A stretch of DNA of 63,941 nt, the filler included, from Basidiobolus ranarum (taxonomy: Eukaryota): assembly GCA_040143965.1 (NCBI GenBank). It is 3 parts of 3 records of this genome, joined end to end, with 100 filler letters (N's around TTAATTAATTAA, not from the genome) between each part and the next. Parts side by side here need not be neighbours in the genome. Positions count along the whole stretch, not along the records: positions 45,176 to 63,941 come from JASJQH010000267.1; 2 more parts are not named here. One strand, written 5' to 3'. The translations under genes were made by a program, and so were the position numbers. Positions 48,027 through 58,374 of this stretch are shown piece by piece (the stretch's first letter is position 1; each line of letters begins with the position of its first letter). The notes beneath the pieces were generated by a model. The model was not told the DNA's origin, ran no database searches, and saw nothing but the letters and a program-made list of their open reading frames with translations.

Positions 48027-49515
48027 TTATACAGCAGCGGCAGCTAAATCAGGCTCCTCGTTACCAGTGTTAGATTTCTCATTCGCTTCCAGGTTTTTAG
48101 ATTTTTTGTAGTTATGGGTTTCACATTGACGACAAGTCTCATTCTTACGACAGCATTGCTTACAAGATTGGAATGGACATTTAATAGATGCAACGTTCTT
48201 GCAATGACTACAAAGCCCTTCTTTGACCTTTTTCGGCTTGCGGGTTTTTTTTGGAGATTCACTTTCAGAAGGCTTTCTCTTTAATGATGGATCATCACTG
48301 TTGGCTTCTGATGTAGAGTTTTCATTCGCTTTTCCAGCTTTGGGTTCAGCTAGAGGTGGTCTGAAGTATGGTTGACACAACCAGTGAGGGATATCACGAG
48401 TACCATTTTCATCAGTCGTGATTTCATGAGAAGAATTCTTGGCAGACTCTTCCAGGCGTTGTTTCAATTCTTGAACAATCTCTTCGAATTGTTCAATGCT
48501 TTTGACTTTACCCAATTGCTCACGCATATCCGTATGAATGTGGAGACAAGGACGGAGGATTTTGAACAAATGGGGTCGAATCATGTGTATCTTTGTGGGG
48601 ATTTCTTTACAGATATCAAGATACTCCTGGGCCATCTTCCACACAGGTGGAAGTTCTCCAGAAAATAAAGCTGGATTATATAAATTGCCTTCGGCAGACA
48701 TAACACCCTGAGCTCCGGTAAACTCCAAACATCTCTGAACATCTTCATGATAGAGAATATTACCATTCGCAAAGACCGGAACTGAAACGGCCTCACGAAC
48801 ACGTCTGATTTGTTCCCAATCTGCTAAACCTGTTTTGTGACCCTTTTGTTCGCGAAAACGTCCATGAACAGTAAGAAGCTGAGCACCAGCATCCACTAGC
48901 AACTTGGCATACTCAATGGTTTTATTAACGTCCGGGAAGATTCGAATTTTGCAAGTAACAGGAATCGAAAGTTTACTATGCAATAGAGAGACTAAATTGA
49001 AAAAATTAGACAAACTGGATAGAAACAATTGACAAGTTCTTTCTAAATGTACCCATGTTCTTCAGTAGGTCCCAGTCTTCCATCAAAAACGAACCATAGT
49101 GACCCCGTTTAGCGATATGTTGTGGGCAACCGATATTTAAATCTACTGCATCACATTTATCTTGAACTAAAAGGGCAGCTTTGAGTAAAGTATCTGGATC
49201 ATTGGCACAAAACTGAACAATCAATGGTCGATCTTGTGGACTAGTAGTAAACTGCTCATCACGATAATGTTGACTTTCAGAAAAAAGACGAGCATGGAAC
49301 ATAGGTGTGTAGCAAAGCTCAGCACCATACCTACGACTCAATACACGCCAAGCCTGTTAATGGAAATAACGGATAGTGTTAAAGCGACGAAGAGAAACTA
49401 ACTGAATACGAACGTATACCTCTTCGGATTGATCTACCATTGGGGCGACAACATATTTGGCACTTTTCAAAGATTTCTCCCAAAATTCGAAACCGGTTGG
49501 CTTTTCAATGGTCAT
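48027..49515 (-). CDS. DUS1: tRNA-dihydrouridine synthase 1
   Basis: [93 protein letters not shown]. Confidence 0.96.
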
Positions 49516-50645: not shown

Positions 50646-51587
50646 ATGTTATCTAACCGAATGAACACACACACCGATCGGTAAAACCACATAACTGCAA
50701 CTTCAAACATTCTACTCTTGGGATTGTCATTTACTTTGTTCATGTTCCTATAGCCGTTTCGACCTGACTATTATTCAGCAACCTAACAACGGATGTGCCT
50801 GTGGAGATGACATAAGAGATCGCATACCCCTTGATCCCCCTTTCATTGTCAAGTTGGTAATACGTGATGGGCATGGCAATGAGCTATCCTGGTAATGTCT
50901 TAGTTTATGTTGTTAAACAATTTATATTACCTCACTATCTTGCATGATTTATCTTGTAGTTCATATGGTTTTTGCAAATTTGTCTTTTTAATTAATACTG
51001 ACGAGATGACTTGAATGTATGTTTGACATCACTTTGTAGCGGAGAAGATATACCATTTCTCGTGGCTCATGTCAGCTTATGGTCAGAAGATGGCTCTGAG
51101 ACCTGCGATTTGGTTCGGCGCACAGATGGAGCCACAAGAATGTTGCTAGGATCTTCAGCTTCGTCTGTTAATGTTTGTAATGATCCGGAGTCTGAGCAGA
51201 GGCAGGCCTCTTACTTCGTCTTTGGTGATCTTTCAGTCCGTGTTAGTGGTAAATTTCGATTGGGCGTATCGTTGGCTAATATTAAAGGGTACAAGGAAAA
51301 GTTTAAAGTTTCTAATCTATTTGGTTTGATAATTAACTCTGACCATGTTTAGAAACTTATTAATGGGACAAAGCCCAACGACAACCATAGCTTCAGTGCT
51401 TTCAGAAACGTTTGTGGTCAAAGAAAAACACGAATATTCTGGATTTGGAGGTTAGTAATATGTTAAACTCGGATTTTGGTTTACTTCCTAAAGTGAAATC
51501 TATGATTTACCTACAGAGTCGACTCCCCTGACTTTGCAGCTGGCATCACAGGGTGTGAGATCCTTGGCTGGGTTTAGGGTAGAGTAA
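50646..51587 (+). CDS. Small velvet-domain protein (~196 aa)
   Basis: Exons 50646-50680, 50754-50891, 51040-51288, 51353-51450, 51517-51587 join in frame. FDLTIIQQP..GCACG...DRIPLDPPFIVKL; LLGSSASS; FVFGDLSVRVSGKFRL; SETFVV; ESTPLTLQLASQGV. Confidence 0.88.
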
Positions 51588-52721: not shown

Positions 52722-53338
52722 ATGGTTTCTATACTCCGAGGTTACCCCATTCCTATTGTTGTTATTCTTCTACAATGTGTACTCTATGGATATATTTCGT
52801 TTGTATACTACAATATGCTACCAGATCCTGTACCTAAACGTTTCGTTGACCAAGAGGTCATTAGCTTTCAGACGAAACGGAAATTTTTCACCATACATTT
52901 GGTGACCTTCTACCTCATTACCTTTATATTTTTAATTGCCGGTATAGTAGTGGCTACTCGCTTGCCTGCTAGACACCTTAAAGTCCCTGGGAAAGAAAAT
53001 TGGCTTGGAGTTCAAGAGAGAGAGAAAATGGTCAAGGTGCTTACCTCGAAATATTTCTTATGGATAACGGTCTTTACAGCACAATTTCTCTTGGAACTCA
53101 ATACTCTTTTGTATGAGGTAAGTCCATTAGTTAATTTCCTTTGACCTACAATTTGAAATTAAAAATTACTTTTTAGTTATCACTTAGAAAGAATGGCGAA
53201 CTCTTTTGGTTTCTATGGGTGTTTCTTTGTGTATATATCGTTGAGCTAGTAGTTACCACTTTCATTGGGTATTTTAAGATTCGTTCTATAGGAAGTTTGA
53301 AAGAAATTGAAGACTTCCAACCATCCTTCTTTATTTAA
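52722..53338 (+). CDS. Multi-pass membrane protein, DUF1648-like (185 aa, one intron)
   Basis: Exons 52722-53117 and 53177-53338 (phase-0 GTAAGT..TTTTAG). About four TM segments; YYNMLPDPVPKRF after TM1 and RLPARHLKVPGKENWL after TM2. Confidence 0.7.
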
Positions 53339-55486
53339 ACATTCACTCGTATATTTCACATCGTAGCAATGGTTTTTCTCAAGCATGTATGAACTTGTAA
53401 ATTTTTTCATTCCTATCGAGTTCTGAATTTCTTTTTAGTAGCTGTTAATGATACAGCCCTTTTTTCTCTTCAACATCTGTATATCCGCGAAGTAAACAAC
53501 GCACTACTCTTTTCCAGCCATTCAAAGAACCTTATTTACAGCCTCAGTAGGTCAATAAATCTTGTCTAGAAACCAAAAAGACCTTTGCTTGATATGAAAA
53601 AGTGTTACAATATTTTTTGGAACGACTAGTTGAATACTGGTGGTTAGAATATAGAACCTATTCATTTCCCACTTTCCACGAACATTTTCATTACCTAGCA
53701 GGTCATCATCTTGTCATACATATGGCTTTGTACCATTATTCTGATCGGTCCACTACCAAATATAGCAAGGTCAAATATGAGCATTGCCTATATTTGGCCT
53801 ACAAGATATTTAGAACTCTGATTTTACCAAATGAAGAGCTTGAAAATAAATTAAGGTTTACTATGTAATACCATGATGAATGTATCAATCACAAGATAGA
53901 TTCTGAGACTTGATGAGTGTATTTAATAGAAATCATTTCGATTACACCAAAGATTCATCTTGGATATTGGCCTTTCACAGGAACACCAGATGTTGATTCT
54001 CAGGTAACAATTCGTTTTTAGGAACTGGTGCATTCACCCGAGTGTTCTATTAGTTCGCTACTAGAAGACAAAATTGTATGAATCAATGCCTGGAAGGATT
54101 GGATGAAGTCGATTTTTGAGGTTTGAGGTGTTGTCTGGTGTCACAAAATACTTATTGCGGGATGTGTAAGAGCATTTGGAAAAACGATTGGCGGTTGAAA
54201 CCGAATTCAACTTCCTGTAGGAGGATGTATCAGGCATCTTGCTGTTGACATCATATTTTGATTGTAACGTTCGAAAAAAGGGGGAAATGCAGGGATGGAA
54301 ATCGTAAATCAGATTACATCTTATTGAGCATCTGTAGATGTTTATGACAACCTAGTTCAGAAATTACACATATAACCAATTTATATCTCCGTATACTTGC
54401 GTGACATTTTATATCTTTTCTTTGAATTTTTAAGACAGACAATTCCTTAACAATGGTCGACTTTGAAACACCTCTGACTTCAAGAAAAAAACGTGAAGTC
54501 CAAAGGCAGATTTAAGAGTATCTCGAAGAAGGCACTGATGTCCTAGTTTATATGAAGTATATCTTCAAGCGATTACTGGATACAGCACAGTGGATACAGT
54601 GTTGACAGATAATAAGCTGTCTACGACGTTCAACTCATTACATCTTGGGTACTCAGGACTAGATCACTCGAAATAGGAAGTAAACAGGAGTTCTCAGTAC
54701 ATTCTAGCGGTAAAACCTCACCATGTACTAGATTGTAGCTGAAACAAAGCAAAAGTTCCTTAGCCTCCAATAAAAGACATACTCATGAATCAAGGCGGAG
54801 TTTTTGTTTCATGTTTACATCGTCATCAAGTCTGATCCCTGCTGAGCAGCGATTAAAGGAGATTCTATACATGAAGCCCATCGTAACGTGATATGTGGCT
54901 GGCTTCGTTTTTACAAGTTGATCTTGTAGGTATTAAAGCGTGGAATTTATAGTAAGTGGCGTAACTGGGTAATAAATGCGCAGGATACATGCTACTCAAG
55001 TTATAGTGAATCTAGGACCACGGGCAATTACTAAATGTCAACTGATCGTCTCAGGTATTAAATCAGCAAATGTTATATTATTGTGATTTCTCCGATAAGT
55101 GCCAGCTGGTGTAGAAGCAAACTGCAGCTAGATCTGCAAGGTACACTAATCAGGTGGAATAAATCGATCCTAGTCCAGGCTGGTGATCCTATCTGACTAA
55201 AATACCAATCATGAATTAGTAGCAAGCAACTACTGTATCAGAATGAGTAAGTTGGTTTTTCTGCGATGTCATTTCTTTTCAAATATTTGTTTGCACTTTG
55301 CCTTCACTTTCGTTTATAGTTGAGTCAGGTGCTAGTTCACCTGAGCGGATCTTGCTTTTTCTTATACACCTGTACAGCTTCTTTTGAGCTATACATTTGG
55401 TTCATTTAGAAGGGCCTCAACGCTCGTAGAAGAAATCCTGAACCTCTCTTGACGTTTCACCAGTTTTCACAGTTCTCCATATAGAA

Positions 55487-56820
55487 ATGTCTGTTCTGAA
55501 CCGGTTATTTCGGAATTCGGCTTGGTCTTCTCTAACTAAATTCGATTCTGAGTACTCTGTTAAAGAGATGGTTTCGGACAGCAACAGCAGTGTCTTTGAA
55601 GAGTGTTTGAATTCGCCTATTTCGATCCCTACCAGGAGTCCTACTTTACTTAGTGATAGCAACTCGACTTGCTGCGACTCGGATATCGACTCCATAGAAT
55701 TAAACCCCGACTATCCAGTTACTCCGTTGCTTTATATCAGACAGGAACTAGAGTATCCATTCAATACTGAGATTCACCAGAAAGATCCCCCTTTGGAGCT
55801 CACAAACCACAGCTCTGATTCGAAGTTTTGGAATTGTCTGATAGAAAATTACTCAATAATGTTAGCCCAAAATCCTGTGAGAGTAACTCAAAGAATTTAT
55901 CAGGGTATCCCAAAAGAATATAGAAGTGTAATGTGGCAATGTATGTCACAGTCGAAGACTACCTATTTAGATACTCTGTATTTCCAGCTGTTGAAGGAGA
56001 GATCTCCTTTCGAAGCGGATATATTACTAGATTTACCACGAACTTTCCCGAGAGTAGATATGTTCAAGAAAAAAGGTGGGGAGGGACAAACACGTCTCTT
56101 CAACGTACTGAAAGCATACTCTGTCTACGACCCAGAAATTGGTTATGCCCAAGGTCTTGGCTATATTGTGGCAGTCCTATTGTTTCATGTAAGTCAATAC
56201 GCAAATCTTTCATCTTCACTTTGTTGTATTAATCAGTCAGTCCCAGATGTCGGAGAGTGAGGCTTTTAACGTATTCGTAAGGTAAGTACTAATCCAGTTC
56301 TAGTTTAGAACAAGCTAATATAACACTGGAATACACATATAGGCTCATGCAGTCCCATGATCTTCGAGAAATATTCCTTACAGATCTGAGAAACTTGGAG
56401 TGTCGGATTTATCAATTTCGATGTCTCTTGTCTAGCCATTTTCCTAAATTGGTGCAACATCTTGACCGACATAATATTCGTACCGCTATGTATACAACAT
56501 CCTGGTTCCTGACCCTCTTTACCAATGTTCTTCCGCTCCCTATAATTTTCCGTTTACTCGACGTAATGCTATTGGAAGGAGTAACTGTAACTGTGATGCG
56601 CATGGGACTTGCTCTGCTGAATCAAAGCTCATTGGAACTGTTAAACTTGGACGATTATGGCGAATTGATGAAAGTAGTCACAGGAACCATATTTGAGGTT
56701 CCGCCAAGCAAAGAGGAAGAACTTATACAATCTCTTGGGCTATTTACTGCTGTTACCGAGAAAGAGTTGACCACGCTGTCCAAGCGGTACAAATTATTAA
56801 GGAATATATTTGCCAAGTAA
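55487..56820 (+). CDS. TBC-domain Rab GTPase-activating protein (Gyp5/EVI5-like)
   Basis: QGIPKEYRSVMW; ILLDLPRTFP (Arg finger); LFNVLKAYSVYDPEIGYAQG (Gln finger); YTTSWFLTLF. Three exons including a 35-nt internal exon. Confidence 0.92.
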
Positions 56821-57476
56821 CGGCTGACAGAGATAGCAAGACCACTACTTCAAATAATCAGACTACATAAGCAGCACAGGAATATTATTTTTGGAAAGAT
56901 TGTTTCATATCGTATTTTTATTTCTCCACTAACCAAAGTCCAATGGTTGTTGAAGTGCTTGGAATCTGCTCTGCCATTCATGTGCTCAATTGATAAAAAT
57001 TGCACTCTCGCTCATATCATATTCTATCGAATTTAGACAGTAGAAAGTATGCACCAACCCTAGAGGAAGTTGGCTAGCATCATTCTACGCGGACAACTAG
57101 ATTAATCAGAAAGTAGTTAATTTTATCTTTTCCAAAGGCGCCTCATAATCTACCAATCCCATGGCAACCGTGAGTAGTGTAATGACTTCAATAAAGTTAA
57201 TTGTCGTTGGATGATACTTCTACAAACAAACGTTCTTTGATCCACAGGTGACTACTGATGGTATAATTGGCACTTACAAATCTAGACCAATCATAGCAAA
57301 CCAAAATGAATTAGTGCCTACTACCTTGATCCTAGTAACACACGGCCAGTGAAATCTATAGATTTGTTGCTATTCGCGAATAGATGGCTACCATTCTTTG
57401 CTCTGCTCTGGGAATGTCTCTAAATTTAGCATTGCTTATACATAGCTTCTTATATAAAGAGTTCGTCGAATGAGCC

Positions 57477-58374
57477 ATGGCCATTAGAATGAAGGCAATT
57501 GATTACTCGTTATGGTTATGGATAGCATTGATTCCCATTCTGCTCTTTAACGCAGAGAAGCAGCTCGCCTCCCCTCACGAAAACCTGCGCTCCGAAGATA
57601 TAGCCATCGTGATGGCATGGGACGAAAGAGTGCAAGATTCTTGGCTACCAAAATCCCTTGATAATAAGCGCATTTACGCCAATCGACATGGATATGAATT
57701 CCTCGTGATGAACATGACTAGTCATCACGGTAGAGCTCCGGTAAGTTTTAAAAAAGTCCCTCTCTATGCTCTCTGGATGAACATTTAACAGTTCTCTCAT
57801 TTATTAGAGTTGGTACAAAATTGAGGCCTTATATAAGGCTTTTAAAGAACATCCGGAGAAACAATGGTTCTGGTGGCTGGATGTGGATACGCTGATTATG
57901 GAATTGGACATGAGGATTGAAGATTTACTAGATGAGGAGATGAAACTTAGTCAAGTCAGACAGAAAGATATCGTGATATCGTGGGATTGCTTTGGGCTAA
58001 CCATGGGCAGTTTTATGCTACGCAACACCGATTGGAACAGAAGGCTACTCTTCAAAATGATGGAATCTGTACCTTCTGGAAGTGAAAAAATCATGTTCGG
58101 TGAACAGCGTTATCTTCAGTCTATATTCAATCTCGGCGAAGAAATGGCAGAGAAATTTCATTTTATTCCGCCAAGAAAGATCTCTGCAGCATTGCAGCAG
58201 CCTTGCGAGCAGTTTGACAAGCACTCCCAAGAGCTGTACGACTTTCAGCATGGCGATTTCTTGATTCATTTTTCTGGCTGTGGTGCCGAAGGCTGTAAAA
58301 ACGCTTTAGACTTCCACTGGAATGGAATATCCTACAATGTAAACACCAATTCCGCAATAAATAATCTATTTTAA
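57477..58374 (+). CDS. Glycosyltransferase family 34 (Mnn10/Mnn11/Gma12-like)
   Basis: N-terminal TM anchor; NKRIYANRHGYEF; SWYKI; WFWWLDVDTLIM (DxD); DCFGLTMGSFMLRN; EQ; GDFLIHFSGC. One intron. Confidence 0.9.

Follow-up and report, generated by a model that had tools for sequence, protein, structure and literature searches.

We consider it probable that an intact, intron-bearing nuclear gene of the fungus Basidiobolus ranarum encodes a divergent DUF1648 membrane protein of a bacterial family and was most likely acquired through a single ancient transfer from bacteria. The gene lies in the window, as the whole stretch of 63,941 nucleotides of B. ranarum DNA analyzed here is called, and its product is the NCBI protein K7432_006208 (P0003 below). 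An ancient transfer appears likely because seven Basidiobolus proteins, which form one clade, are the sole named eukaryotic relatives of the bacterial family.

Gene structure and genomic setting

How is the gene built? The initial annotation proposed a 185-aa product split by a 59-nt GTAAGT..TAG intron, and its coordinates proved correct (Table 1). Between the ATG at 52722 and the TAA at 53336–53338, splicing would yield a product of 185 aa, and the joined exons are identical, letter for letter, to K7432_006208, so that the model first proposed is the annotated one. The annotated protein leaves out positions 53118–53176. Read without splicing, the frame of exon 1 meets a stop at 53144 and gives a product of 140 aa; exon 2, which contributes 53 aa, is in a different reading frame, so the frame switches across the intron. 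The intron pattern alone is weak evidence, because it matched once in the 64-kb window and was also matched in 14 of 100 shuffles. The exon junction gains weight, on the other hand, from the single frame that stays open from 53177 and from the alignment of four Basidiobolus paralogs, which cross the junction without a gap. The paralogs P0006 and P0086 match exon 2 in its own frame (tblastn, 36.6 and 34.3 bits, respectively). There is one copy of the gene in the window.

A protein of the second species, Basidiobolus meristosporus, is of interest here. P0004 (K493DRAFT_65473) is a 142-aa model ending in ...LYEVSP..., and read-through into the intron of the B. ranarum gene would give LYEVSPLVNFL*, the asterisk standing for the stop. 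Failure to recognize the same intron has probably left the P0004 model truncated; if so, the intron position is common to both species. The GTAAGT sequence is also found at the frame switches of the adjoining TBC (56282) and GT34 (57741) genes, and the window has 43 instances of it where 32.8 would be expected. These frame switches and counts fit the view that GTAAGT is the usual splice donor of the genome.

The surroundings of the gene are fungal. Both of the neighbors reported at the outset, velvet and a TBC GAP, were found on its flanks, together with a dihydrouridine synthase (Dus) and a glycosyltransferase of family 34 (GT34). These adjoining genes are ordinary eukaryotic ones, broken by short introns. 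The coding sequence of the gene has a GC content of 0.367 and a GC3 of 0.366 (neighbors: GC 0.40–0.42, GC3 0.33–0.47), a base composition that is fungal and matches that of its neighbors.

Table 1. Positions, in window coordinates, of the gene, its conserved or Basidiobolus-only elements, and the flanking domains
Feature	Position	Strand	Content or basis
Dus (dihydrouridine synthase)	48027-49356	-	Domain in flanking open frames
Velvet	51002-51352	+	Domain in flanking open frame
Exon 1	52722..53117	+	Codons 1-132: TM1, DUF1648 hairpin, TM2, conserved loop 2, TM3
DUF1648 signature YYNMLPDPVPKRF, residues 29-41, just after TM1	52806..52844	+	PF07853 match and conservation
Conserved loop 2 between TM2 and TM3, residues 81-100, LPARHLKVPGKENWLGVQER	52962..53021	+	Conservation
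Codons Q121-E125, polar residues in TM3, Basidiobolus-only	53082..53096	+	Invariant in 4 A1 and 6 A6 Basidiobolus rows
Predicted intron, spliceosomal-type, 59 nt	53118..53176	+	GTAAGT...TTTTTAG, GC 0.237
Exon 2	53177..53338	+	Codons 133-185 and TAA stop: loop 3, TM4, C-terminal tail
Codon E155, glutamate inside TM4, Basidiobolus-only	53243..53245	+	Invariant in Basidiobolus rows
RabGAP-TBC	55442-56820	+	Domain in flanking open frame
Glycosyltransferase 34 (GMA12/MNN10-type)	57474-58374, domain frame 57808-58374	+	Domain match

Relationship to bacterial DUF1648 proteins

The gene was initially described as DUF1648-like, a description that holds as regards homology but falls short of formal membership in the Pfam family. 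The Pfam model PF07853 (DUF1648) matches residues 19–38 of P0003 at 17.1 bits (E 0.0045) and exon 1 alone at 17.9 bits; the gathering score is 28.7, a threshold that P0003 does not reach, so that Pfam itself would not count it as a member. The alignment takes in positions 3–22 of the 49 in the model, which spans merely the first tenth of the homology found for the fungal protein. (For the paralog P0006, a precomputed PF07853 match exists.) The full extent of that homology is seen with a profile made from 11 members of bacterial or metagenomic origin, without any fungal ones (A3), which matches P0003 at 76.1 bits (E 2.2e-16, Z = 1.84e9) and aligns profile positions 7–156 of 168 with residues 11–161. 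When six fungal proteins are compared with the same profile by hhalign, the probability is 98.5% (E 3.2e-15, 160 columns). A phmmer search of 1.84 billion representative proteins, with exon 1 as the query, yielded 47 matches at E <= 1e-3, all of them co-linear and 122–239 aa in length. Of the 48 rows in alignment A1 (4 from Basidiobolus and 44 bacterial or metagenomic), 47 match PF07853 at E <= 0.01, the best at 4.5e-15, and a feature search of the ESM Atlas led to bacterial DUF1648 clusters with a score of 0.90. By these profile and alignment comparisons, the fungal protein is a real, full-length, divergent homolog of the bacterial membrane proteins that bear DUF1648. Against the bacteria-only profile, exon 1 alone scores 69.9 bits; exon 2 scores 2.7 bits by itself and adds about 3 bits. 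The last helix is poorly conserved in sequence across the bacterial family.

Both of the motifs to which the initial annotation drew attention are present. The one is the DUF1648 signature, in which 35–42 of the 44 bacterial or metagenomic rows carry the majority residue at Y29, Y30, L33, P34 and F41. The other was quoted as residues 80–101, RLPARHLKVPGKENWLGVQERE; its spacing, as first given, is one residue off with respect to the bacterial consensus. Conservation is pronounced in this second loop, where the 44 rows agree with the fungal residue in 42 cases at P82, 44 at P89, 35 at K91, 41 at position 92 (E or D), 44 at W94 and 40 at L95. At all of the 13 conserved columns checked (29, 30, 33, 34, 37, 41, 52, 82, 89, 91, 92, 94/95 and 114), the fungal protein has the bacterial majority residue or an E/D equivalent. 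The near-invariant residues of the family are Y-Y, L-P, F and K after TM1, P and P-x-K-E/D-x-W-L in loop 2, and the W with which TM3 starts.

How widespread is the family in bacteria? A scan of prokaryotes with A3, using one genome per species, yielded 415 candidate stretches, 389 of which encode a relative. The best 80 of these 389 loci were kept, each with one matching open frame; they are distributed over 25 named bacterial phyla, and 15 of the loci have no phylum name. The bacterial proteins are about 170 aa long (~155–190 aa) and have four helices, with a hairpin after TM1. Named members, annotated as "DUF1648 domain-containing protein," come from Capsulimonadales, Verrucomicrobia, Chitinophagaceae, Phycisphaerae and Alphaproteobacteria. 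Distribution within phyla is patchy: among 401 genomes sampled from the phylum of one genome (G003), P0003 matches 9 (best 36.4 bits), and the metagenome protein P0044 matches 40 of the same genomes (best 69.2 bits, 28% identity). No neighboring gene is conserved, any one neighbor family being found in at most 5 of the 80 bacterial loci, and the bacterial four-helix gene behaves as a stand-alone gene across the 25 phyla. There was nothing above the cut-offs in NCBIfam and no match in PADLOC, and a search of plasmids and phages with P0003 gave no match. When plasmids were searched with a bacterial member, P0056, the sole match was an annotated DUF1648 gene of Tsukamurella tyrosinosolvens (NZ_LR134452.1, 49841–50215; 28.5% identity). 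In the literature, the titles and opening abstract lines of papers retrieved by a full-text search for "DUF1648" concern neither its function nor fungi; in the passages at hand from one of them (PMC7329392), it figures solely as a name in a domain table.

The fungal protein thus shares with the bacterial family its length, its four helices and the hairpin after TM1, a co-linear match over ~150 residues, the signature Y-Y-x-x-L-P-x-x-V and the loop-2 motif P-x-K-E/D-x-W-L. It differs in being only ~24–25% identical and in having an intron, in the polar residues Q121, E125 and E155 that it carries inside TM3 and TM4, and at position 99, where the arginine common in bacteria is replaced by glutamate.

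Distribution in eukaryotes and phylogeny

DUF1648 had been called essentially prokaryotic. A search for eukaryotic orthologs of the fungal protein covered deposited proteins (libraries including NCBI, UniRef and EukProt) and found none from a named eukaryote outside Basidiobolus. Of the 47 phmmer matches, 30 were looked up: three are Basidiobolus proteins (P0005, P0006 and P0007), two are clusters with named bacteria, and the rest are unnamed metagenome proteins.

The Basidiobolus set consists of seven proteins in three paralog lineages. Four are from B. ranarum, namely K7432_006208 (the gene studied), K7432_016802 (82.7% identical), K7432_008325 and K7432_004157; three are from B. meristosporus (K493DRAFT_65473, K493DRAFT_79825 and K493DRAFT_319574). 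P0004 shares 83.3% identity with P0003 across 132 residues, which places the first lineage in both species. P0006 and P0007 (ORX88049.1 and ORX88048.1; K493DRAFT_79825 and K493DRAFT_319574) are probably tandem neighbors, since their accessions are consecutive and each has the same longest contig size of 60,525 bases. Their B. ranarum counterparts sit on contigs of unlike size.

A quick tree built from 156 rows groups the full-length Basidiobolus proteins, six in number, as a single clade (SH-aLRT 98) whose stem measures 1.49 changes per column. Pieces, fragments and fused forms were left out (P0001, P0002, P0004, P0014, P0021, P0027, P0032, P0054, P0072, P0077 and P0084). A more careful tree of 56 rows took in no more than two loci from each named phylum, together with 16 metagenome proteins and, as the outgroup, two proteins of SdpI type; the long branches L058 and L079 were excluded, and the bootstrap was not fully settled. 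The outgroup proteins, P0082 and P0083, are ENA metagenome proteins in which DUF1648 is paired with PF13630. Here, too, the six Basidiobolus rows group together as a single clade (100/98), made up of three pairs, each supported at 100 with SH-aLRT >= 98. In one pair, P0003+P0005, both members are from B. ranarum; the other two, P0006+P0086 and P0007+P0087, each join a B. meristosporus protein with one from B. ranarum. Because all three lineages occur in both species, the two duplications predate the species split. According to the available part of a recent preprint, B. ranarum and B. meristosporus represent the two major clades of the genus (10.1101/2025.03.31.646025).

From where, then, did the gene come? 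The sister rows of the Basidiobolus clade are P0044 (93/80), followed by P0012+P0034 (80/86), all three from metagenome contigs of ~1–1.8 kb without organism assignment. The backbone of the tree is poorly supported, and a tree that places Basidiobolus outside all other ingroup rows is 5.26 log-likelihood units worse, with an AU p of 0.381. Because that tree is not rejected, the case for transfer rests on distribution and not on nesting. A long stem leads to the fungal clade (1.34–1.49 changes per column), and the top bacterial matches of P0003 reach about 36–51 bits. Metagenome scans with P0044 (591 pattern stretches) and with the fungal alignment (11 stretches) gave no confirmed match, and no close donor was found in these scans or in the 401 genomes from the phylum of G003.

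Structure and topology

The suggestion that the protein has about four transmembrane segments agrees with an AlphaFold2 model calculated from A1 (pLDDT 88.1, pTM 0.83), which has four long helices at residues 9–32, 52–80, 97–136 and 139–172. By hydropathy, there are three strong hydrophobic cores (residues 10–28, 60–78 and 144–162). The DUF1648 signature is carried by a predicted hairpin, 37–42/45–50, that follows the first helix. In the 44 bacterial rows, the net charge is +1.0 at the N-terminus, -0.5 in loop 1, +1.6 in loop 2, +0.2 in loop 3 and +2.3 at the C-terminus; by the positive-inside rule, the N-terminus, loop 2 and the C-terminus are placed inside. This suggests that both ends and loop 2 are cytoplasmic and that the hairpin is outside. 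TM1 would then act as a signal anchor, with the N-terminus, loop 2 (P-x-K-E-x-W-L) and the C-terminus directed to the cytosol, and with the beta-hairpin bearing the DUF1648 signature, together with loop 3, facing the lumen or the outside.

Among solved structures, none was clearly related. A Foldseek search of the PDB had no match at E <= 0.001, a sequence profile search of the PDB returned nothing below E 0.25, and a search of the ESM Atlas that excluded PF07853 gave no usable match. The best VIA-align scores were Z 10.4 for a designed helix bundle, 9.0 for ORAI and 8.7 for WeiTsing, all within the range that the tool gives for unrelated helical bundles.

Putative function

What might the protein do? 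No set that looks catalytic stands out among the conserved residues, which are prolines, aromatics and a single lysine. Tentatively, the protein could be a non-enzymatic binding or tethering module at the membrane surface, a possibility to which we give some weight, if less than even. The three polar residues peculiar to the fungal proteins deserve mention as well. Q121, E125 and E155 are invariant in all six Basidiobolus proteins, whereas the 44 bacterial or metagenomic rows are mostly hydrophobic at these sites, with F, L, V, Y or A at position 155. The lineage of the gene studied here has kept the bacterial motifs best; the other two have lost the P-x-K-E-x-W-L motif of loop 2 and have nevertheless kept Q121, E125 and E155. 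The polar transmembrane residues and the loss of the loop-2 motif hint at a changed role after transfer.

Two more specific proposals have to be considered. The initial annotation suggested an SdpI/YhfL-type immunity protein, possibly protective against bacterial peptide toxins, which the fungus would meet in the gut. SdpI of Bacillus is both a toxin sensor and an immunity protein; its build is larger than four helices, and SdpI/YhfL genes are genetically linked to a toxin and a regulator (sdpC/sdpR-like partners). The DUF1648 signature does follow the first helix in the Bacillus proteins as in the fungal one, it is N-terminal in SdpI-domain proteins, and P0082 and P0083, which have both domains, are distant matches; the predicted exposed hairpin could bind a ligand, and Basidiobolus lives among gut bacteria, as stated in the portion of PMC7466969 available. 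However, PF13630 has no match at E <= 10 in P0003, P0004 or P0005 and is found at E <= 0.01 in none of the 48 rows of A1, and the fungal protein has four helices, not the larger SdpI build. The bacterial loci lack a conserved toxin or regulator neighbor, PADLOC gave no match, and the fungal neighbors are unrelated housekeeping and regulatory genes. The SdpI/YhfL identity was accordingly dropped, both for want of a PF13630 match and for want of a conserved bacterial neighbor gene. The fungal protein falls instead into a distinct family of ~170-aa proteins that have DUF1648 only, and protection from toxins is a guess from the common N-terminal signature, which we regard as quite improbable.

The other proposal is a new role, taken on after transfer, that would use the charged intramembrane residues, for example, to bind cations or protons or to pass them as an oligomer. 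Besides the invariance of Q121 and E125 in TM3 and of E155 in TM4, their persistence in the two lineages without the loop-2 motif and the long stem leading to the fungal clade are consistent with such a change. On the other hand, the similarity to ORAI and WeiTsing lies in the range expected for a common helical-bundle arrangement, and we consider this role unlikely. The same applies to a broader scenario in which the transferred protein would have been rebuilt into a fungus-specific membrane device, such as an oligomer that handles cations or protons or a sensor for the products of gut bacteria, through triplication, fixation of one glutamine and two glutamates in TM3 and TM4, and loss of the loop-2 motif in two lineages; it is likewise unlikely. 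Of the functional readings, a binding or tethering module keeps the most weight.

Origin of the gene

Could the gene have reached the assembly, or the genus, in some other way? Contamination with bacterial DNA, a chimeric assembly or a relic gone out of use would account for the bacterial affinity of the protein, but not for an intron, a fungal base composition and fungal genes on both sides within the 64-kb window, nor for open, conserved copies in two species and three lineages or for the retention in P0003 of all 13 of the conserved family residues checked. This explanation is extremely unlikely. As the initial annotation had held in view of the intron, contamination is improbable, and the composition and the flanking genes now add to this; contamination or chimera is not a serious option. 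Vertical descent would require an ancient eukaryotic or early-fungal gene that was lost everywhere except in Basidiobolus. The unrejected tree with Basidiobolus outside the other ingroup rows is compatible with it, and the closest rows (P0044, P0012 and P0034) are metagenome proteins that have no organism assigned to them. Against it are the lack of any other named eukaryote in the NCBI, UniRef and EukProt libraries, with 30 of the 47 phmmer matches looked up, and the presence of the family in 25 named bacterial phyla (80 loci); moreover, the pairing of DUF1648 with an SdpI domain, as found in the outgroup, is to our knowledge prokaryotic. Vertical descent is therefore very improbable.

Ancient transfer from bacteria is the preferred reading, in view of the full-length homology to bacterial proteins, of a family found in 25 named bacterial phyla and, among named eukaryotes in the libraries searched, in Basidiobolus alone, and of the fungal setting of the gene; nesting within bacteria is not forced by the tree (AU p 0.381). 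In a single transfer, before B. ranarum and B. meristosporus diverged, an ancestor of Basidiobolus would have received the gene from a bacterium. The gene would then have acquired the base composition of the fungus and gained an intron, and duplication would have given rise to the three paralog lineages.

Significance

Uptake of bacterial genes is already known and is usual for Basidiobolus, and the gene studied here is a further example. The accessible text of Tabima et al. 2020 (PMC7466969), a paper mainly on secondary-metabolite genes, puts candidates for transfer from bacteria at 2–5% of the genes of Basidiobolus; the composition of the candidates is host-like, and 61% of them are intronless. 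The present gene resembles those described there in its bacterial affinity, fungal neighbors, host-like composition and scarcity of introns. The term "DUF1648" is absent from the main text of that paper, whose candidate lists are in the supplements. Among the xenologs of early fungi, Ciach et al. (PMC11291939) count 16 DUF families, according to the part of the article at hand.

The general picture of transfer into fungi is unchanged by this gene. It does offer a small, clean example of bacterial gene flow into Basidiobolus, in which an intron was gained, the composition became that of the host and a family of three lineages arose. A Basidiobolus "hypothetical protein" is thereby placed in a widespread bacterial membrane family, and a tractable eukaryotic copy could help to reveal the function of that family.
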